From Centroscyllium fabricii (Eukaryota), in assembly GCA_051313645.2 (NCBI GenBank), contig JBNRSN020000056.1:5084001-5148000 (forward strand): a stretch of 64,000 nt of DNA, read 5' to 3'. The position numbers and the translations under genes were made by a program. Shown one piece after another: positions 29,437 through 44,095 of the stretch. Position 1 is the stretch's first letter, and each line of letters starts with the position of its first letter. The notes below the pieces were generated by a model. That model did no database searches. It worked only from the letters and a program-made list of their open reading frames with translations, and was not told where the DNA came from.

Positions 29437-31238
29437 GTAAGGTGTGTGTGTGAGGCAGGGTTGGGGGGGGGCAGCGTTCCCGCTAATTTCCATAGGAAGA
29501 TAGGAGCAGGAGTAGGCCATTCGGCTCCTCGAGCCTGCTCCACCACCATGGCTGATCATCCAACCAACGGTCCCGTTTAGCTGCGCAGCCGCCTGAAGCT
29601 CCCGTGCAGGCCACTTTCTCAATGGCCTTATCTGAAGAAGGATGTTCTTGCCATGCAGGGAGTGCAGCGAAGTTTGGGGGGCAGCGTTCCCGCTAATTTT
29701 CTTTTTGGGCACGCGGCCCCTTCACACTCACTGTCAGTACCCTGTCCCTGCTTTCTCCCCATATCCCTTGATCCCTTTAGCCTTAAGAAATACATAGAAG
29801 ATAGGAGCAGGTGTAAGCCATTCAGCCCCTCGAGCCTGCTCCGCCATTCAATGCAATCATGGCTGATCATCCAAATTCAGTACCCCGTACCTGCCTTCAC
29901 CCCATATCCCTTGATCCCTTTAGCCGTAAGAAATATATTTAACTCCTTCTTGAATATATTTAATGAATTAGCATCTACGGCCTTCTATGGTAGAGAATTC
30001 CACAGGTTCACCACTCTCTGGGTGAAGAAATTCCTCCTCATCTCATTCCTAAATGGCTTACCCCTTATCCTTAGACTGTGACCCCTGGTTCTGGACTCTC
30101 TGACCATCGGGAACATCCTTCCTGCATCTAGTCTGTCTAGTCCTGTTATAATTTTATAAGTTTCAATGAGATCCCCCTTCATTCTTCTAAACTCCAGCGA
30201 GTATAAGCCCAATCGACTCAATCTCTCCTCATACGTCATTCCTGCCATCCCAGGTATCAGTCTGGTGAATCTTCGCTGCACTCCCTCCATGGCAAGAACA
30301 TCTTCCTCAGATAAGGCCATTGAGAAAGTGGCCTGCACGGGAGCTTCAGGCGGCCGCGCATCTAAACGGGAGCGCTGGTTGGGTGCTGCTCACACCATTG
30401 AGTGCAAATTTTCTCTGACCGTTCCAAGCCAAGTACAGGAAACTCTCGTTTAAACGGCACCTAAATATCCGGAATTCTCTATTAACCGGCAAAATCCTCG
30501 CTCTGAATACAACACCTCAATAACCGGCAGTGTTGCCGAGTCCGAGTCTCCCACGGTGGCCGAGTTAGTCAGTGGGGGTGTTAACTCACTCACTCTGTGA
30601 GGAGGACCCACCTTCCTGGGTGTTTGGGTTCTTACTTTAGGAGACTAAACACGTCAGTCAGTCTGTCACTTTCTCAGTAATACACAAAGTCAGAGACTGT
30701 AAAATAATTAAAGTTTATTGAACTAATCCCAGTACCGGTACTTCACTCTGAGAGACCCCTTGTGTTTGCACACAAGCATAGCAACCCAGAAGTGCGCCGC
30801 TCACGCTGAGACTGCAATTATTTATACAATACATAAATGCAAAACAGACCTTGCAAAAAGATTAAACGTCCATAAGCTCAGCGAATAATTCTGAAAAACA
30901 AAAACAACCAATGAAAAAAAATAGAGACAGTAGAAACCCAATTAAATGTCAACATCTTTGTGTTGACTCCTCCTTATCTTTGCAGCTGCAGCTTTGTTAT
31001 GCAAGAAGTCACACAACACCAGATTATAGTCCAACAGTTTTATTTTAAATCACAAGCTTTCGGAGCTTTTGCCCCTTCGCCAGGTGAAAGAGAGACTGAC
31101 TTAAAGAACGCACATATGGGAGGAAGGGAGAAATCCGATCTCTCCCACATCTCACCTTAGCAGAGATAGACAGAGCACACAAAGGCGTATTAACATATTT
31201 TAAGAGATTCATTTAAACATAGCATATATAGAGAGAAC

Positions 31239-31404
31239 GAACAATGTGGTCTCTCCAGCTGTTTCACATCACACCTCAGCTGAGGGACATCAAAGCAATC
31301 AAAGGTGTTCTAACCTTTGATTGTTAGGGTTAGAACACCTTTGATTGCTTTGATGTCCCTCAGCTGAGGTGTGATGTGAAACAGCTGGAGAGACCACATT
31401 GTTC
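31239..31404. repeat. Perfect inverted repeat, 77-bp arms, 12-nt spacer
   Basis: 31239-31315 is the exact reverse complement of 31328-31404. Confidence 0.95.
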
Positions 31405-31684
31405 TCGTTCTCTCTCTCTCATCGATTCTGAGGCGGTTGATGGCTGTCCACTGTTTGCGAGGAAGGTTTGACCCTCGGTAAAGGATGCTAGTTAAACTGC
31501 CAGCTCCTGAAAAAAGATGTGCACCATTAATCTATGCACCTAAGGTACAAAATAGGGGACGAGATGAAATGCAGAATACCAGCAGCAAGTGTTTTTTCTC
31601 TGGGTGTGAGTCATGTTGACCTTGTCTAAGCTGTAATGTTGTGCATGGTAATAAGGGAGTGTAGCAAGTGCACCCTTTCCTGTA

Positions 31685-32684: not shown

Positions 32685-35560
32685 CTAACCCCATTTGCCC
32701 GCACCTGGCCCATAACCCTGTATGTTACGGTCCTTCATGTGCTGGTCCAAATATTTTTTAAATGTTGCGATGGTTTCTGCCTCCACCACCCTTACAGGCA
32801 GGGAGTTCCACACTTCCACAACCCTCTGAGTAAAGACATTTTTCCTTACCTCCCCCCTAAACCTCCCCCCCCTAATCTTGAATCTATGTCCCCTAGTACT
32901 TGACTCTCCCACCAAGGGAAACAATGCCCCTTTATCCACCCTATCGTGTCCTCTCATGATCCTGTACACCTCAATCGTGTCACCCCTCAATCTTCTCTTC
33001 TCCAAGGCAAACAACCCCAGCCTGTCCAGCCTTTCCTCGTAGCATAAGTCCCCCAGACCAGGTATCATCCTGGTAAACCTTCTCTGCACCCTCTCCAGGG
33101 CAACCACATCCTTCCTGAAGTGCGGTGACCAGAACTGCACACAGTACTCCAGCTGAGGTCTCACCAGCGTGTTATACAAGTTTAACATTACCTCCCTACT
33201 TTTGTATACTATGCCCTGGTTAATAAAGGCCAGAATTCCGTATGCCTTCTTAACCACCTTGTTTACGTGTCCAGCAACCTTCAGGGAGCTGTGCACCTGT
33301 ACCCCAAGGTCCCTCTGTTCCTCGGTCCTACCTAACGTTTTTTTGTTCATGGTATATTCCCTTACCCCATTTGGTCTGCCGAATTGTATGACCTCGCATT
33401 TCTCTGGGTTGAACTCCATTTGCCATTTTTCTGCCCAACTAACCATTACATTTATATCTTCCTGGAGCCTTTTACTATCTTCATCGTTATTTACCACCCT
33501 TCCAATTTTCGTATCATCAGCAAATTTGCTGATCGTACCCCCTACTCCCATGTCCAAATCATTGATGTATACTAGAAACAGTAAGGGTCCCAAAACCGAT
33601 CCTTGGGGGACACCACTGGTTACTGGTTTCCAGTCACAGAAGCAGCCCTCTACCATTACCCTTTGTCTCCTATCCCCCAGCCAATTTTGAATCCACTGTG
33701 CCAAGTTGCCCTGTATCCCATGTGCTTTAACCTTTGTTATTAGTCTCCTATGTGGGACTTTATCAAAAGCCTTGCTGAAGTCCATATACACCACGTCAAC
33801 AGTACTCCCTTCATCCACCCTCTTTGTTACCTCTTCAAAGAATTCCAACAGATTAGTTAGGCACGACTTACCTTTGACGAAGCCATGTTGACTATCCCTT
33901 ATCAGACCCTGCTTTTCCAAATGCAGACTGATTTTGTCCCTCAGAATTTTTTCCATTACTTTCCCCACTACAGATGTAAGACTGATTGGCCTATAGTTAC
34001 CCGGTTTGTCCCTACTACCCTTTTTAAACAGGGGTACTACATTAGCCGTTCTCCAGTCCTCAGGTACATCCCCTGACGCGAGAGAGGACCTGAAAATTTG
34101 AGACAGGGGGCCCGCAAGCTCTTCCCTGGCCTCGAACAGCAGCCTGGGGAACATCGCGTCCGGCCCTGGTGATTTGTCTACCTTTAAGCTTCCCAAGATT
34201 TCTAGTACTTCTTCCCTTGTAATGGTAATATCCTCAATTACCCCCCCTACACTCTGTCCGATTACGATGTCGGTTCCGTCCCTCTCTCTTGTGAATACTG
34301 AAGAGAAAAATTAGTTTAGTACCTCCCCCACCGCCTCGGGCTCGACGCACAACTTTCCGCTATCGTCCTTAATGGGCCCCACTCTTTCCCTCGTGATCCT
34401 TTTGTTTTTTATATAACTGTAAAATGCCTTAGGGTTATCCTTGATTTTGCCGGCCATTGCAATCTCATGACCCCTCTTGGCTTTTCTTATCTCCTTCTTT
34501 AATTACCCCCTATACTTCTTATACTCCCCTAGCGCCTCCTCAGTTTTTAGCCGTTTATATTCATTGAAGGCCCCCCTTTTTTTCTTCATTAATTTACATA
34601 TATCCCTAGACATCCAAGGTTCCCTTTGTTTACCTCCCCCGCCCTTAATTTTTGCAGGAACATGTTCCTCCTGTATCTTCCCGACCTTCCCTCTGGAGGC
34701 CTCCCACTGCTCTGATGCAGATCTTCCTCTGAGAAGATGGCCCCAATCTACTGCGGCTACATCGCGCCTAATTTTAATGAAATCCGCCATCCCCCAGTTT
34801 AGTACTTTTACCCCTGGTCCATTTTTATCCTTCTCCATTACAATCTTGAAACTAACTGAATTGTGGTCGCTATCCCCGAAGTGCTCCCCCACTGTTACCT
34901 CCTCTATCTGCCCGTCTTCGTTCCCAAGTATTAGGTCTAGTACCGCCCCCCCCTTGTAGGTGACCCAACATATTGCTTCAAAAAACTCTCTTGGCTGCAT
35001 TTTAAGAATGCTGAACCTTCCGTGCCCCTCACACTCTGACAATCCCAGTTGATGTTGGGGAAATTAAAGTCCCCTAATATTATTACTTTGTTATTTTCGC
35101 TTATCTTCGTGATTTGCTCACATATCTTACCCTCCATCTCCCCTTTACTGTTTGGTGGTCTATAATATACTCCCAGTAAGGTGCCCCCCCCCTTTTTATT
35201 TTTTACCTCCACCCATAGTGCCTCGTTTGAGGAATCATCCATTAGGTCGACCCGCCTGATGGCTGTGATTGAATCCTTAATCAGTATCGCTACCCCCCCT
35301 CCCCTTTTTCCCTCGTCTCTGTCCCGCCTGAAAATTCTATACCCCGGAATATTTAGCTGCCATTCCTGCCCCTCCTTCAGCCACGTCTCCGTGATAGCTA
35401 CTATATCATATTCCCATGAGTCAACCAATACCTTTAACTCATCCACCTTGTTAGTCAGACTCCTTGCGTTAAAATATATACCTTTCATTCTCTGACCTAA
35501 TACTACCTTGTTTTGCTGTCTAGTCTGCTTTCCTTTATTAGGTTGTATTCCCCTACCCAT
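32685..35560 (-). pseudogene. CR1 ORF2 (APE endonuclease + RT), disrupted
   Basis: NARSL, ITETW, GDFN, GDSDH; QGSVLGP, KFADD; frameshift in the C-run near 34945 and in-frame TAA stops near 34503 and 34311. Confidence 0.9.
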
Positions 35561-35595
35561 TATGCCTTCACTCTGGGTCCCCTCCCCCTGCCAAT

Positions 35596-36555
35596 TTAGT
35601 TTAAACCCACCCCAACCCGACTATCAAACCTTCCCGCAAGGATATTGGTCCCATTCCGGTTCAGGTGCAACCCGTCCTGCATGTACAGGTTCCACTTACC
35701 CCAGAAGCAAGACCAATTGTCCAAAAAGCTGAAACCCTCCTTCCTACACCAACTTCTTAGCCACGAATTAAGCTGCTCTATCTTACGGTTCCTATACTCA
35801 CTAGCTCGTGGCACTGGGAGTAATCCAGAGATTACAACCTTTGGGGTCCTGCTTTTTAGCTTTTTACCCAGCTCCCTAAATTCTCTTTGCAGGACCTCGT
35901 CCCCCTTTTTTCCTATGTCGTTGGTGCCAATGTGGACCACAACTTCTACCTGGTTCCCCTCCCCCCTCAAGATGTCCTGCAGCCGATCCGTGACATCCCG
36001 GACCCTGGCACCAGGGAGGCAAGTAACCATCCTGGTGTCACGTCTGCGGCCGCAGAACCGCCTCTCTGTGCCCCTTACGATTGAATCCCCTATTACTACT
36101 GCTGGCACACTAGTTTCCCTCCCATTCTGGGCAGCCCCAGCACCCCTAGTGCCAGGAAGTAGGCTGCTGCTGCCCTCCCCTGGTAGGTCCTCCCCCTCCA
36201 CAGTATCCAAAGCGGTATAACTGTTGGACAGGGGGACGGCCACAGGGGTTCCCTGCACTTCCTTCCTCACTCTGGCACTCCTCTTGGTGGTCACCCAATT
36301 TCCTTCTATCTGGTCTACTCTAGTCTTTGGTGTGACCACCCTCTCAAACGTGCTGTCCACGACCCGCTCATCGTTGTCTACGCCCCATAATGCTTCCATC
36401 CGCAGCTCCAGCGCCGCCATGCGGTCGGCTAAGATCTGTAGATGGATGCATTTCCTGCATACGTGTTCTTCAGGGGCCCCGTCCGGGCCCCTGAATTCCC
36501 ACATATTACAGGTGGAGCATATGACTGCGATGGCCTGCACTGCCATGTCTCCCAT
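35596..36555 (-). CDS. CR1 ORF1p: zinc-finger-like N-terminus + SGNH esterase
   Basis: CSTC..HVCRKC; VVIGDS, CLPGA, HIGTND and DGLHLN esterase blocks; open 319-aa frame. Confidence 0.88.
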   Translation of the reverse strand: MGDMAVQAIAVICSTCNMWEFRGPDGAPEEHVCRKCIHLQILADRMAALELRMEALWGVDNDERVVDSTFERVVTPKTRVDQIEGNWVTTKRSARVRKEVQGTPVAVPLSNSYTALDTVEGEDLPGEGSSSLLPGTRGAGAAQNGRETSVPAVVIGDSIVRGTERRFCGRRRDTRMVTCLPGARVRDVTDRLQDILRGEGNQVEVVVHIGTNDIGKKGDEVLQREFRELGKKLKSRTPKVVISGLLPVPRASEYRNRKIEQLNSWLRSWCRKEGFSFLDNWSCFWGKWNLYMQDGLHLNRNGTNILAGRFDSRVGVGLN

Positions 36556-37388
36556 TTTATATCTTAAATCCCTTGTTCTAGTAGACTTTAGTACCCTTCG
36601 TTTCCTTTTTAGATTTACTGAATCCCACTACTTTTAGTAGTTTTTAGAAAAGTTTGAGGAAAGTACTCACCAGTCCCTTGCCTCCTGTTGTGAAGGTTTT
36701 CTCTGTCCTGGAACCCTTTCCACCTAGGTTGGGCTCCTGAAAATAAAATAATTTGAACGTACCTTTTTTTAAATCGCTCTAACCCCCTAAGGTTAGAGGA
36801 GGATGGAAGGGTGGGAAACACTACCACGTAGTGTTTCGGGTTTAGCACACAGCTCCCCTTTTATACTGCAAAGAAAGTCCCACGAGACTTGCCGAGACTT
36901 GTCCCGCCCCCCGGCGACGCTGCTGATCGGCTTTTAAAAAAGCCCGCGCTGGCTCAGCTCTCCTGGCTCCGTTTCCCTGAAGCAACGCTAGCTCAGCTCC
37001 CCTGGAAGGAAAGGAAAGTTACCTGTCCTTCTCTCCTGGCTCAGCTCCCCTGAAGCAGCGTTAGCTCAGCTCCCCTGGAAGGAAAGTTACAGCTCCCCTG
37101 GAAGGAAAGTTACCTGTCCTTTTTCTGCGCCTCAGGCTCCCAGCTGGCTGGTTGAGAATAGAACTGAGGCTTTTATTCACTAAGAACCCTGGACATCCTT
37201 AGACTGACTGGCAACTCCTTGTACTGGGCCAGGCTCCCAGAGCTCGGGCCTTTATCAGGTAGGCTAGGGGCGGAGTCAGCTTCAGGCATGCCCGGGCATG
37301 TATACACACAGGCAAATATATACAACAGTGGTTTACCACATTCACCCCTTCTTTAAAAATGAGTCCAGTGGGGTTAAGTGAGACAAAG

Positions 37389-40300
37389 TCAAGTGTACAT
37401 GAGTCTTTCAGGAGGTCTGGTACGCCTCTGTGATCGTCGTGGCTCCAGCTGCGGTGCTGGTTCCACGTCTTTGTCCGCACGGGGGCAGTCGGTGGTCGGC
37501 GGCTGGGTCCTTGGATCCGGCGCGCAGTGTACAGGGGCTAGGGGAGAAAGATGAGATGCAGGTGCCTCCCGGGGGGTGGTGGTTTGCAAAAGGGGGGGGT
37601 GGCGGAGTTCGGCAGCATCGGGGGCACCTGAGGGGGCGAGGTCCCTAATAGAAACGGTGTCCTCCCGCCCGTCCGGATACGCAATGTAGGCGTATTGGGG
37701 GTTTGCGTGGAGGAGTTGGACTCTTTCGACGAGGGGGTCCGTCTTATGGCTCCTGACATGTTTCCGGAGCAAGCCGACTCCTGGGGACGTCAGCCAAGAT
37801 GGGAGCGATGTCCCTGATGTGGACTTACTGGGGAAGACAAAAGTTTTTTCATGAGGGGTGGCGTTTATGGCAGTGCAGAGGAGGGATCGGATAGCATGGA
37901 GTGCATCCGGGAGAACGTCTTGCCAGCGCGAGACCGGAAGGCCCCTGGACTTTAGGGCTAGCAGGGTGGCCTTCCAGACTGTAGCGTTCTCCCTCTCCAC
38001 CTGTCCGTTCCCCCGGGGATTGTAGCTGGTAGTCCTGCTCGTGGCGACGACTCCAGCGAGCAGGTACTGTCGCAGCTCGTCGGTCATAAATGAGGAACCC
38101 CAGTCGCTATGGATGTAGCTGGGGAACCCGAACAGGGCGAAGAGATTGTGCAGGGCCTTGATGATCGTGGCCGAGGTCATGTCAGGGCAGGGAACGGCGA
38201 AGGGGAACCGTGAGTACTCATCAATAATGGTGAGAAAGTACACATTGCGGTCGGGGGAGGGGAGGGGTCCCTTGAAATCGATGCTGAGGCGCTCGAAGGT
38301 ACGGGTGGCCTTGATCAGTTGTGCCCTGTCTGGCCTGTAAAAGTGCGGTTTGCACTTGGCGCAGACCTGGCAGTCCCTGGTCATGGTCCTGACCTCCTCA
38401 ATGGAGTAGGGCAGGTTGCGGGCCTTGACAAAATGGAAGAACCGGGTGGCAGAGGTCGTTGTGGAGGGACCGCAGTCGATCCACCTGCACGCTGGTGCAT
38501 GTTCCCCGGGAGAGGGCGTCTGGGGGCTCGTTGAGCTTCCCGGGCCGGTACAAGATATCGTAGTTGTAGGTGGAGAGTTCAATTCTCCACCTCAATATCT
38601 TGTCGTTTTTGATTTTACCCCGCTGCTTGTTGCTGAACATAAAAGCAACTGAGCACTGGTCAGTGAGCAGGGTAAACCGTTGACCGGCCAAGTAATGCCT
38701 CCAGTGGCGCACAGCTTCCACTATGGCCTGGGCCTCCTTCTCGACAGAGGAGTGTCTAGTCTCGGGGCCTTGGAGGGTCCGGGAGAAGAAGGCCACGGGT
38801 TTGCCCGCCTGGTTAAGGGTGGTGGCCAGGGCAAAGTCGGACGCATCGCTCTCCACCTGAAATGGGGCGGTTTCGTCCACCGCGTGCATGGTGGCCTTAG
38901 CGATGTCCCGTTTGATGCGGTCGAAGGCCATACGGGCCTCCGTCGTCAGGGGAAAGGAGGTGGACTTAAGGAGCGGGCGGGCCTTGTCTGCAAAGTTAGG
39001 GACCCACTGGGCGTAGTAGGAGAAGAAGCCCAGGCATCTTCGCAGGGCCTTTTGGCAATGGGGGAGGGGGAGTTCCATGAGCGGGCGCATGCGGTCTGGG
39101 TCGGGACCGATGACCCCGTTTTCCACGACACAGCCAAGAATGGCAAGGCGTGTTGTGCGGAACATGCATTTCTCCTTGTTATAGGTGAGATTAAGGAGTT
39201 GGGCCGTGCGAAGGAATTTTTCCAGGTTGGCGTCATGGTTCTGCAGGTCATGGCCGCAGATGGTCACGTTGTCGAGGTACGGGAACGTGGCCAGCAGCCC
39301 GTGCTGGTCAACCATACGGTCCATCTCCCGTTGGAAAACCGAGACGCCATTGGTGACCCCGAAGGGGACCCTGAGGAAGTGGTGGAGGTGGCCGTTAGCC
39401 TCGAAGGCAGTATAGCGGCGGTCCGCGGGGAGGATGGGGAGTTGGTGATGAGCCGATTTCAGGTCAGTGGTGGAGAACACCTTGTACTGCGCAATCTGAT
39501 TGACCATGTCAGATATGCGGGGGAGGGGGTACGCGTCCAACTGCGTAAAGTGGTTGATGGTCTGGCTGTAGTCGATAACTAATCGGTTCTTTTCACCGGT
39601 CTTAACGACTACTTGGGCCCTCCAGAGGCTGGTGCTAGCCTCAATCACCCCCTCCTTCAGGAGCCGCTGTACCTCGGACTTGATGAAAGCCCTGTCCCCA
39701 GCACTGTATCTCCTGCTCTTAGTGGCTATGGGTTTACAGTCTGGGGTGAGGTTAGCGAACAGTGGGGGAGGGGCGACCTTGAGGGTCGAGAGGCTGCAGA
39801 CGGTGGGCGGTTTGAGGGCCTCTGGCTGCGGACAGTGAGGGGGGGAATCGTAATGCGATTAAAGTGGGTTTGGAAGTCTAACCCCAGGAGGACGGCCGCG
39901 CAGAGGTTGGGTAGGACCAGGAGTTTGAAATCCTTGTACACTGCGCCGCTCACCAACAGGGTTACCACGCATTAACCGCCGACATCCGCGGTCTGGGATT
40001 TGGAAGCAAGGGAGATGCGCTGGTGCATGGGCCGAGTGGAGAGCGAGAGGCGGCGCACCGTATCGGGGTGGATAAAGCTTGCCGTGCTCCCCGAGTCAAA
40101 CAGGCAGTTCGTGGCGCAGCCGTTTACCTTAATGTCCATCATCGACTTTGTGAGGTGGTGGGGCCCAGACTGGTCCAAGGTAACGGAAGCCAGTACCGCG
40201 GCTGGTGGCTCATCGCAGTCAGTCGGGGAGCCGGGTCGGTCTGTGGCTGCAGGCTTCCAAGATGGCTGCTCCCATGAATCGCACATGGTGGGGTTTTCCA

Positions 40301-41104
40301 AGATGGCCACGAGGTCGGTTCGCACGCGGCGCTGCTGGGCCTGGGGGACGACTTGCAGATACTCGCGTAGTGTCCCTTCTTCTGGCAATGCGTGCACGTA
40401 GCGTCCTTCACCAGACAGCGCTGCCTGGAGTGCTTCACTTGGCCGCAGAAATAGCACTTCTGGCTCTGGGGTACCGCCGCGGTGGTCGGGGCGTTCACGG
40501 GGTGAGGCGAAGGTGGCAAGGCGTCGGGCCTGGCGTGTTCCACGCTGGCAGCTCCCGTGAGGTCCATGGGGTGGCCATGTGCATGTACGACTCCATACTC
40601 CGATCAGCCCCTTCGAGTGCGAGTCCGATGTCTGTGGCCTTCTTCAGGGACAGTTTCCCCAGTTCCAGCAGTCTCTTCCAGGTGTAGTCCGATTGTACGC
40701 CGGCGACGATGGCGTCTCGGACTAGCAGCTCCCTGTGCTCATCTGCTGAGGCCGTTTCGCAGTTGCAGGCTCTGCTGAGCTCCGTCAGGGCCCGCACAAA
40801 GCCCGCAAAACTGTGCCCGGGCCGTTGTTTGCGGGTCAGCAGGAGGTGCCTGGCGTAAACCGTGTTAGTCGGCTGCTCGTACTGCTCCTTGAGGAGGGCC
40901 ATCGCCGATGTGTAGGAGGTCGTTCCCTTGATGGTGATGGAGCCGTGACTGCAGAAGCAAGAGTTTCTGGGCATCCGACTGGACAGTGCTGGCGGAGGTC
41001 GCCAGGAATCCCTCAAAGCAGGTTAGCCAGTGGGAGAAGCTGCTCGGCGCCTCTGGAGCACTCGGGTCGAGTTCCAGGGTGGATAGCTTTAGGAGGGCGT
41101 CCAT
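37389..41104 (-). pseudogene. Gypsy gag-pol, frameshifted: gag with two Cys/His knuckles, protease, RT, RNase H, integrase
   Basis: CYFCGQVKHSRQRC and CTHCQKKGHYASIC; LFDSGS; RVPFGV..YLDN; SDASD..EKEAQA..TDQ; IDFKGP..HSD.G..NGQVER in the order PR-RT-RH-IN. Confidence 0.92.
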
Positions 41105-44095
41105 CTCAAAACTCTTAGTGAATAAAATTGATGCACGATCAATTATACTCGAGGCGAGGTTGAGAATACAACTGAGGCTTTTATTCACTAAGAACCCTGC
41201 ACATCCTTAGACTGACCAGCAACTCCTTGTACTGGGCCAGGCTCCCAGGGCTCGGGCCTTTATCAGGTAGGCTAGGGGCAGAGTCAGCTTCAGGCATGCC
41301 CGGGCATGTATACACACAGGCAAATATATACAACAGTGGTTTACCACAGTTTAGCAGAAATGTTTTTTTAACTTTGACAATTCCCCCCACCCCCCCCTCC
41401 TTTCTTGATGCTGTGTCTCCTTGCTGGGGTAGAGTGCCACGGGTGCTGTGGACCCTCCCTGTTTGGTCATTATTTATGCATGTGGCGGGCTATGTGACCG
41501 TCGGAGCTGTTGCCTGAACCTGATATCTAGATATGTACTTCCAGCAGGGTTCGCTGGATAGCGATTGATCCGGGAGCCCTGGACAAGTTGCTGCCCTAAC
41601 TGATTCTACTTGTGCCCTGGCTGGGATTGTTTATTTGCTGCCAGTTTTCTTTGCCTTCCTGTCTCTCGTGATTCTGTGCCGGTGAATGTCGAGAGACTAT
41701 TCGTCCTCGGGGACCATCACTGCTGAGTAGTTGCCACCTGACTTCCAGTGGGGTCACTGTGAGGAGGATGCCGAGAAATTCCAGTATGATTTGGACAGTT
41801 CGGTGATTAGGCAGATGCAATATAACGTGGATAAATGCGAGGTTATCCATTTTGGTGTCAAAAACAGGAAGGCAGATTATTATCTGAACAGCAATAGATT
41901 AGGAGATGGGGAAGTGCAACGAGACCTGGGTGTCCTTGTGCACCAGTCGCTGAAGGGAAGCATGCAGGTGCAGCAGGCGGTTAAGAAGGCAAATAGTATG
42001 TTGGCCTTCATAGCGAGAGGTTTGATTACAGGAACAAGGATGTCTTGCTGCAGTTGAACAGGGCCTTGATGAGACCACACCTTGAGTATTGTGTGCAGTT
42101 TTGGTCGCCTTATCTGAGGAAGGATGTTCTTGCCATGGAAGGAGTGCAGTGAAGATTCACCAGACTGATACCAGGGATGGCAGGAATGTCGTATGAGGAG
42201 AGATTGGGTCGATTGGGCTTATACTCGCTGGAGTTTAGAAGAATGAGAGGGGATCTCATTGAAACTTATAAAATTATAACAGGACTAGACAGACAAACAT
42301 AGAAACTAGGAGCAGGAGTAGGCCATTCGGCCCTTCGAGCCTGCTCCGCCATTCAATGAGATCATGGCTGATCATCCAAACCCAGCACCCCGCCCCTGCC
42401 CTCTCCCCATATCCCTATCGAGAATGCATTGACATATTTAATCCCCCTGACACTAAGGGTCAATTTATCCTGGCCAATCAACCTAACCTGCACATCTTTG
42501 GACTGTGGGAGGAAACCGGAGCACCCGGAGGAAACCCACGCAGACACGGGGAGAATGTGCAAACTCCACACAGATAGTACCCGAGGCTGGATTTGAACCC
42601 GGGTCTCCAGTGCTGTGAGACAACAATGCTAACCACTGTGCCACCGTGCAGGAAGGATGTTCCTGATGGCAGGGGAGTCCAGAACCAGGGGTCACAGTCT
42701 AAGGATAAGGGGTGAGCCATTTAGGACAGAGATGAGGAATTTCTTCACCCAGAGAGTGGTGAACCTGTGGAATTCTCTACCACAGAAGGCCGTAGAGGTC
42801 AATTCATTAAATATATTCGGAGTTGGATATATTTCTTAAGGCTAAAGGGATCAAGGGATGTGGGCAGAAGGCAGGGACAGGGTACTGGGTTTGGATGATC
42901 AGCCACGATCTCATTGAATGGCAGAGCAGGCTCGAGGGGCCGAATGGCCGACTCCTGCTCCTATCTTCTATGTTTCTATGTCACTGTGGATAGTGATCAG
43001 GAGTGGGAACCCTAGCTTCTTTTCATCCGCCCCCCTAACTCGGACACCAAAGCCGGTCTTGCTGCCCTCTTAGAGTGCTCATTCACTGAGGACCAGGGAG
43101 TCAATATGGGGCAGTTGTGTTTGTATTTCGTGCTTCACCAGGCAATGCACTTGCGCCCTAGGCCATCCGAGGTGCTGTTTTGCCTTTTGTTATCAGGGTT
43201 TTAATTGTTTTTATGCGCAAGTAACCTAACACGAGAGCACTAACAACATCTATCAAATATTGCAATACAGGTTGAGCGCCCCGAATCCGGCAACCACGGG
43301 ACCGAGGCTGAGCCGGTTTTGGTGTTTTTCTGGACTTCGGGACGTGTCTCTGATGTCCGAAGTCCGGAAATATCGCAACCGGGGCTCTGGCGTTTCTGGA
43401 CTTCGGACATCAGAAACGCGTTCCGAGTCTGGAAACGCCTGGGCCGCTCCGCGTAGAGCTGACTCGTTTCTCCGCCCCTCCCCTTTTGTTAAAGGGCAGG
43501 GACGCTGTGAGCGCCGCAGAGCATCCGACGGCCCACACTGGGCCACCAGGGCGGCGTGGTGCCGTGGCCGCAGCCTGGCGGAAACACTTGGTGGAGCCGT
43601 GCAGATTAAGGAGGATAAAACACAACACGGTGGCATAGTGGTTAGCACTGTTGCCTCACAGCACTGGAGACCCGGGTTCAAATCCGGCCTCGGGTACTAT
43701 CTGTGTGGAGTTTGCACATTCTCCACGTGTCTGCGTGGGTTTCCTCCGGGTGCTCCGGTTTCCTCCCACAGTCCAAAGATGTGCGGGTTAGGTTGATTGG
43801 CCAGGATAAATTGACCCTTAGTGTTAGGGGGATTAAATATGTGGGGTTACGGGGATAGGGTGGGATATGTGTCGGTGCAGGCTCGATAGGGATCGAGGGA
43901 TATGGGGACAAGGCAGGGACAGGGTGCTGGGTTTGGATGATCAGCCATGATCTCATTGAATGGCGGAGCAGGCTCGAGGGGCCGAATGGCCGACTCCTGC
44001 TCCTATCTTCTAAAAAAAACCCACTTATTGCATCACTCGCATTTTTCATAGGATTTTTCATAAAAAGACAACAAAAGGTAATGGCTTTTTAAGTA

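Follow-up and report, generated by a model that had tools for sequence, protein, structure and literature searches.

A Ty3/Gypsy element of the shark Centroscyllium fabricii with a probable self-derived primer for reverse transcription

Anatomy and kinship of the element

The window considered here is a stretch of 64,000 nucleotides of Centroscyllium fabricii contig JBNRSN020000056.1 (assembly GCA_051313645.2, positions 5,084,001 to 5,148,000). Its minus strand carries a decayed Ty3/Gypsy element belonging to a large family, for which 1548 exact normal junctions were counted in the 7.2-Gb genome. The 5' LTR (41129..41348, 220 bp, TG...CA) is followed by a one-base spacer (41128), a primer-binding site complementary to the element's own LTR (41113..41127) and gag-pol (37392..41104). 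The latter encodes a zinc knuckle, protease, RT, RNase H and integrase and is broken by frameshifts and stops, lying in five pieces in three frames with four stops. A polypurine tract ending in AA (37341..37354) precedes a truncated 3' LTR (37150..37340) that lacks its last 29 nt and is 97% identical to the 5' LTR. The element is placed in Ty3/Gypsy by its TG...CA LTRs with target duplication, its polypurine tract and the order protease, RT, RNase H, integrase; the best PDB matches of its proteins are to Ty3, and its closest named proteins come from rays and a catshark, in keeping with the shark origin assumed in the initial annotation. The RT active-site motif (39268..39279) reads YLDN instead of YxDD, and at this place most members of the clade described below carry N and several carry D, scattered over the tree.

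The CA that ends the LTR at 41129 is common to all 11 copies possessing a 3' LTR among the 20 copy regions fetched for this check (the remaining nine have no full second LTR), and a 5-bp target duplication was found in 9 of these 11. In contigs of four sequencing runs, which behaved as genomic and were used solely to fix the LTR end, 86-96 contigs per run diverge at 41129 into unrelated flanks. The 3' LTR breaks at 37150, about 29 nt below its AATAAA-bearing segment and near a possible poly(A) cleavage point, which may be coincidence. Directly downstream of the element lies a LINE (32685-36627, minus strand) with an esterase-like ORF1, an endonuclease and an RT, which its motifs mark as probably CR1-like. 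Tandem repeats occupy 36947-37121 beside it, and an inverted repeat of 86 bp with a loop of 12 nt is found at 31230-31413. Elsewhere in the genome, one locus (L137, L002/L003) displays two tandem 5' ends 3548 bp apart with the same left flank, followed by a 3' LTR.

In an RT tree, the element and its relatives form a clade of 47 rows apart from the Mag-, Gmr1-, CsRn1- and sushi-type elements of the genome (SH-aLRT 100); the tree is a quick one with a long-branch warning, a midpoint root and four sushi-type rows, and its references are the genome's own copies and no named elements, with putative type labels assigned by RT motifs. The initial annotation had regarded the element as Mag-like. The Mag lineage (A/B/C clades) likewise consists of non-chromovirus Gypsy elements with short LTRs and paired CCHC knuckles, the latter being typical of Mag. 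However, the element forms its own group in the tree, the genome's Mag-type elements use TGG primer sites, and RT-RNase H identity to them amounts to 28-29%, in a comparison that covers only these Mag-type copies (again putatively typed by RT motifs) and no named Mag, SURL or MolGy sequence. The Mag-like identity is therefore not supported.

Pairing of the primer site with the LTR

On the minus strand, 41113-41127 is a perfect reverse complement of 41179-41193 in the LTR, the primer site starts with TTT where tRNA priming would call for TGG, and an AATAAA hexamer (41185-41180) lies inside the LTR arm. All three observations had been made in the initial annotation and proved exact. The helix extends further, pairing 41179-41199 with 41107-41127 (21 pairs); the extension beyond 15 bp holds five G-U pairs and one Watson-Crick pair each at 41198 and 41199. 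The primer-site arm begins one base after the CA of the LTR, a spacing also seen for the TGG primer sites of other Gypsy elements in the genome. Stem length alone is not the argument here: the window contains 11 other clusters of 15-bp perfect inverted repeats whose loops measure at most 100 nt, and fold z-scores of -2.46 and -2.80, from two computations, are modest. What places the stem beyond chance is its position together with its covariation.

All 15 pairs are kept in 26 of the 29 other best-matching copies. As controls served eight Gypsy elements of other types in the genome, four of them Mag-type, all with TGG primer sites and with self-matches of at most 6 nt; they stem from 20 fetched regions, the others of which had no clean LTR end. 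An alignment of 32 relatives led to 87 related loci in metagenome and MAG contigs, the relatives sharing 44-65% protein identity. With 39 loci devoid of a Gag start and one too short, 47 were testable, since a Gag start and sufficient upstream sequence were present. Of these 47, 39 form a perfect stem of 10-19 bp, each exceeding the maximum of its 30 shuffles; in four more, the stem contains a single mismatch or wobble or is formed through the 3' LTR. Three testable loci (L045, L078 and L079), truncated or decayed, show no stem. One further locus below the score filter (L048) was added by hand for the primer-site set, the per-locus check and the RNAalifold input described below. Named relatives come from rays, a catshark, a sea anemone, a damselfly and a nematode; none was found among the viral contigs searched. 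Several clade members (L110-L117) sit within contigs of bacterial MAGs and most likely represent contaminating animal host DNA.

The initial annotation had proposed a test of conservation or covariation, and the pairing turned out to be conserved. The relatives and 60 shark Gag loci together provide 31 distinct primer sites of 11 nt, every one complementary to the LTR of its own element and positioned one base after the CA; this set corresponds to 33 groups minus L166 and L181, which reflect an unrelated U3 hairpin, and 18 of the 60 shark loci failed the anchored 11-bp test, mostly through single changes or truncation. The absence of full matches between families (0/1056) is true by construction and carries no evidential weight. 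RNAalifold, run on 30 sequences chosen for having the stem, returned 14 pairs, 12 of them with compensatory changes on both sides, and found the arm helix as the only common structure. Among shark subfamilies, six compensated letter pairs occur at two positions. Directly after the arm, the motif RCC is present in 28 of the 31 distinct arms and usually starts a second stem. In the window copy, fold prediction places an inner stem-loop in R/U5 (41139..41175), pairing 41175-41164 with 41150-41139.

Over-copied primer tracts and the predicted RNA start

In a number of genomic copies the primer site does not lead into the leader, and what follows it is the reverse complement of the element's own R region. 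In family A, 104 copies carry such over-copy junctions, to be compared with 1548 normal junctions and only three of the mirror-image kind; the second family (family C) has 49 over-copy, 1291 normal and no mirror-image junctions. Tracts were measured for 100/104 copies of family A, 49/49 of family C and 20/20 of a third pattern, and removal of duplicates left 148 unique tracts (89, 45 and 14, respectively). The 89 tracts of family A end at 19-50 nt (39), 51-57 nt (17), 58-140 nt (11) or beyond (22), and the 45 of family C distribute over the same intervals as 8, 13, 5 and 19. Immediately after the peak, at 58-64 nt, a single tract ends in family A, where the TATA box lies at -86/-85, and none in family C, where it lies at -82. 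In family C, seven tracts stop exactly at 52 nt, on an initiator-like A that follows the TATA box by 30 nt. Compared per position, the stop rates at 51-57 nt and at 58-140 nt differ with Fisher p values of 2e-9 (family A) and 6e-10 (family C), in tests that treat positions as independent and with a 51-57 bin that was set after seeing family A and before examining family C. In two families, then, tract ends accumulate some 30 nt below the TATA box, at ~55 nt in A and 52 nt in C. The third pattern, with 14 unique tracts of mixed subfamilies, has end points without a peak.

The TATA box itself (TATAAAG or a close variant) is found in shark subfamilies 82-93 nt above the 3' end of the arm, with an initiator-like motif some 30 nt below it. 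The window family has GATAAAG (41258..41264), 86 nt upstream of the arm's 3' end, a putative TATA-like box whose place at equal distance is taken by TATAAAG in sister subfamilies. Its position predicts an RNA start at about 41233, an A within 41231..41234 that coincides with the site where over-copied tracts pile up and stop. The proposal of Tf1-like priming in the initial annotation holds as far as the self-pairing goes; it probably does not hold for a location of the paired segment at the 5' end of the RNA, this segment lying ~40 nt downstream of the predicted start. No TATA box was found in the invertebrate relatives. Two of these have LTRs that begin as little as 50 and 72 nt above the cut proposed below, and therefore a primer length of 55 nt is not general and must vary.

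Not all tracts end at the peak. Those ending before it number 52/148, and 45/148 (~30%) extend past 140 nt, mostly reaching the LTR start; of the latter, five have target duplications and form palindromic inserts, and five run on into the internal region. Tracts to the LTR start need another route, because an RNA begun at the transcription start cannot template them. Candidate routes for these long tracts are a fold-back of the plus strand, recombination between the 15-bp homologous segments, and priming from the 3' R. The tracts thereby show that routes at the DNA level exist, but such routes do not explain the peak. The palindromic inserts (L320, L322, L330, L332 and L365) consist of LTR, primer site and inverted R-U3, thus integrated DNA with two U3 ends, and carry perfect 5-bp target duplications. 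Beyond the tract, the DNA mostly re-enters the element, either at various internal positions or at the U5 tip; six of the ten tracts that jump to the U5 tip are flanked by perfect 5-bp target duplications and were therefore formed before integration. In five other loci (L364, L247, L326, L198 and L273), the sequence after the primer copy goes back to the primer site or leader, which yields an antisense insert or a doubled primer site.

Priming mechanism, alternatives and known systems

Covariation and over-copied tracts together support the self-priming that the initial annotation had put forward. The likely primer is a 5' fragment of the element's RNA, predicted at ~55 nt in the window family. 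That the primer is self-derived in some manner is very probable on sequence evidence; that in sharks it would be the capped 5' piece of ~55 nt is also probable, to a slightly lesser degree. Whether it would be cut in cis by RNase H is an even call, the element's own enzyme being the best guess on the Tf1 model. Transcription would start at ~41233, and nucleotides ~41-55 of the RNA would fold onto the primer site through the R-region arm (41179..41193). The RNA would then be cut after AAA, between the arm helix and the second stem (AAA|RCC, 41179|41178), leaving a candidate primer at 41179..41233 whose new 3' end RT would extend through U5. Some 20 nt of R between the cut and the poly(A) site could serve the first strand transfer. 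The plus strand would later copy the primer, normally over ~15 nt, and such copying would rewrite the primer site from R in each cycle and keep the two arms matched, which could account for the perfect covariation. In 4-6% of 5' junctions, the plus strand would have run further and jumped by microhomology. Since only RNA ends at the transcription start, the peak is most simply read as the work of plus strands that passed from U5 into a primer consisting of the transcript's own 5' piece. The mechanism predicts a minus strong-stop DNA of ~51 nt and, with the start at 41233 and the cut at 41179|41178, offers exact predictions for RNA-end mapping.

The most serious alternative, which we consider unlikely and yet worth keeping in view, is a self-derived primer acting in trans or from the other end of the RNA: the primer site would anneal either a short transcript that stops at the 5' poly(A) site or the arm copy in the 3' R, and trimming back to the duplex would take the place of a cut in cis by RNase H. 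Prediction puts the arm in R and hence at both RNA ends, five tracts traverse U3 and the polypurine tract into the internal region, and among 62 informative copies of family A, three have a tract and an LTR that disagree at a diagnostic indel. An identical peak at the transcription start would also result from a short capped transcript, whereas a 3'-R primer gives no stop there, and the conserved RCC and stem right after the arm (28/31) are as expected of a recognised cut site. Improbable in our view is that the tracts merely reflect template switches at the DNA level, by plus-strand fold-back or host replication at the inverted repeat, and are uninformative about the primer. The long class that reaches the LTR start, five cases of it with target duplications, does fit plus-strand fold-back. 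Host switching should however be two-sided, in conflict with the observed 104:3 and 49:0, and DNA, which has no break at the transcription start, would not account for stops at that point whose position shifts with the TATA box.

Two further explanations dispense with self-priming altogether. The duplex might mainly hide the poly(A) signal of the 5' LTR while something else primes. Its AATAAA lies wholly within a duplex that can form only at the 5' LTR, and AATAAA or ATTAAA occurs in 21 of the 31 distinct arms and in all shark subfamilies seen; nevertheless, ten arms have neither (three of these carry a hexamer elsewhere in the loop), masking does not need an arm placed exactly one base after CA, and it leaves unexplained the one-sided over-copying (104:3) that stops at the predicted transcription start. 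As the main role we thus find it quite improbable: masking is geometrically possible but, judging from the ten arms without a hexamer, is not the conserved function of the duplex. As a side role in addition to priming, it is a possibility that we hold somewhat less than probable. The least credible explanation, to which we attach next to no weight, is priming by a tRNA 3' end, a tRNA half or another host RNA with an incidental self-match. Priming by tRNA halves has a precedent in some copia lineages, according to the accessible part of PMC6317226, and the comparison set was small. In this set of 20 distinct tRNA sequences from only three isotypes, the best match to any of the 31 sites is 5 nt; the primer sites are without TGG and each follows its own LTR, and no single host RNA can match 31 different sites.

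Self-priming has previously been demonstrated in Tf1, and has been inferred both in related chromoviruses and in a single copia lineage of plants. In the literature accessible to us, which left most subscription journals, Repbase and GyDB pages and bioRxiv supplements outside its scope, no paper on self-priming in the clade of the shark element was found. New are the genome-wide count of over-copying, its one-sidedness and stops that track the TATA box. A farther-reaching interpretation, advanced tentatively and as somewhat short of probable, is that an animal Gypsy clade unrelated to Tf1/sushi invented self-priming independently; that in sharks a capped primer of ~55 nt buries the 5' poly(A) signal with its last 15 nt, one fold protecting the RNA and priming its copying; and that over-copied primers, present in hundreds in the genome, map the transcription start of each family and record reverse-transcription intermediates. 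With the clade of the shark element, self-priming would extend to abundant animal non-chromoviruses of a different geometry, in which a long 5' overhang precedes the pairing and the paired arm overlaps the poly(A) signal. Control through tRNA fragments would presumably not reach self-primed elements, and programs that detect LTR elements by a tRNA site would miss them. From over-copy junctions, the primer of an LTR element could in general be read by sequence alone.

The Cigr-1 clade (Ciona, molluscs, annelids) is a candidate kin group by its anatomy: Cigr-1 has one ORF of ~1200 aa and LTRs of ~245 bp, which fits relatives of 1124-1338 aa. Its occurrence in molluscs and annelids is documented in the accessible parts of PMC6238403 and PMC8556966, which contain nothing on priming. 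The text of PMC2774666 mentions neither Cigr nor PBS, and the accessible parts of PMC6934838, PMC3601003, PMC7472051, PMC10680173 and PMC5443660 hold nothing on the clade of the shark element.

The closest functional parallels are Tf1 and Tf2 of S. pombe, Tj1 of S. japonicus and the Tf1/sushi chromoviruses, which likewise carry a primer site that can pair with the element's own LTR. The paired primer of Tf1 comprises 11 nt at the very 5' end of the RNA, whereas the shark element is predicted to have ~40 unpaired nucleotides before its paired segment. Its RT is ~30% identical to that of the genome's sushi-type elements and falls in a separate group, a chromodomain search gave no Chromo match in the window integrase or in eight relatives, and the arm of the shark clade often includes a poly(A) hexamer. 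The three-duplex pretzel of Tf1/sushi is not clear in the shark clade, where a stem after the arm is predicted in most loops and the leader-U5 pairing was not seen conserved. By these sequence comparisons, the element probably works like Tf1 but is not a member of Tf1/sushi. Among the genome's sushi-type elements (L461 and L465), one has an 11-nt self-matching primer site and one a chromodomain-like tail. Two self-priming lineages appear to coexist in this genome. The accessible parts of PMC5341516, PMC4600332 and bioRxiv 10.1101/2022.12.06.519325 describe the Tf1-type primer as the 5' part of the RNA, cut off and extended. The over-copied tracts may be likened to Tf1 plus-strand cDNA, which likewise contains a copy of the primer (PMC11042837, accessible part). 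In plants, self-priming has been predicted from complementarity between LTR and primer site for the TAR/Houba/Osr-1 (Ty1/copia) and Tcn1 (chromovirus) lineages (PMC6317226, accessible part), and self-priming thus arose outside Tf1/sushi, as TAR shows. Those are plant elements of other lineages, whereas the present one is an animal non-chromovirus Gypsy element whose primer has left traces in the genome.
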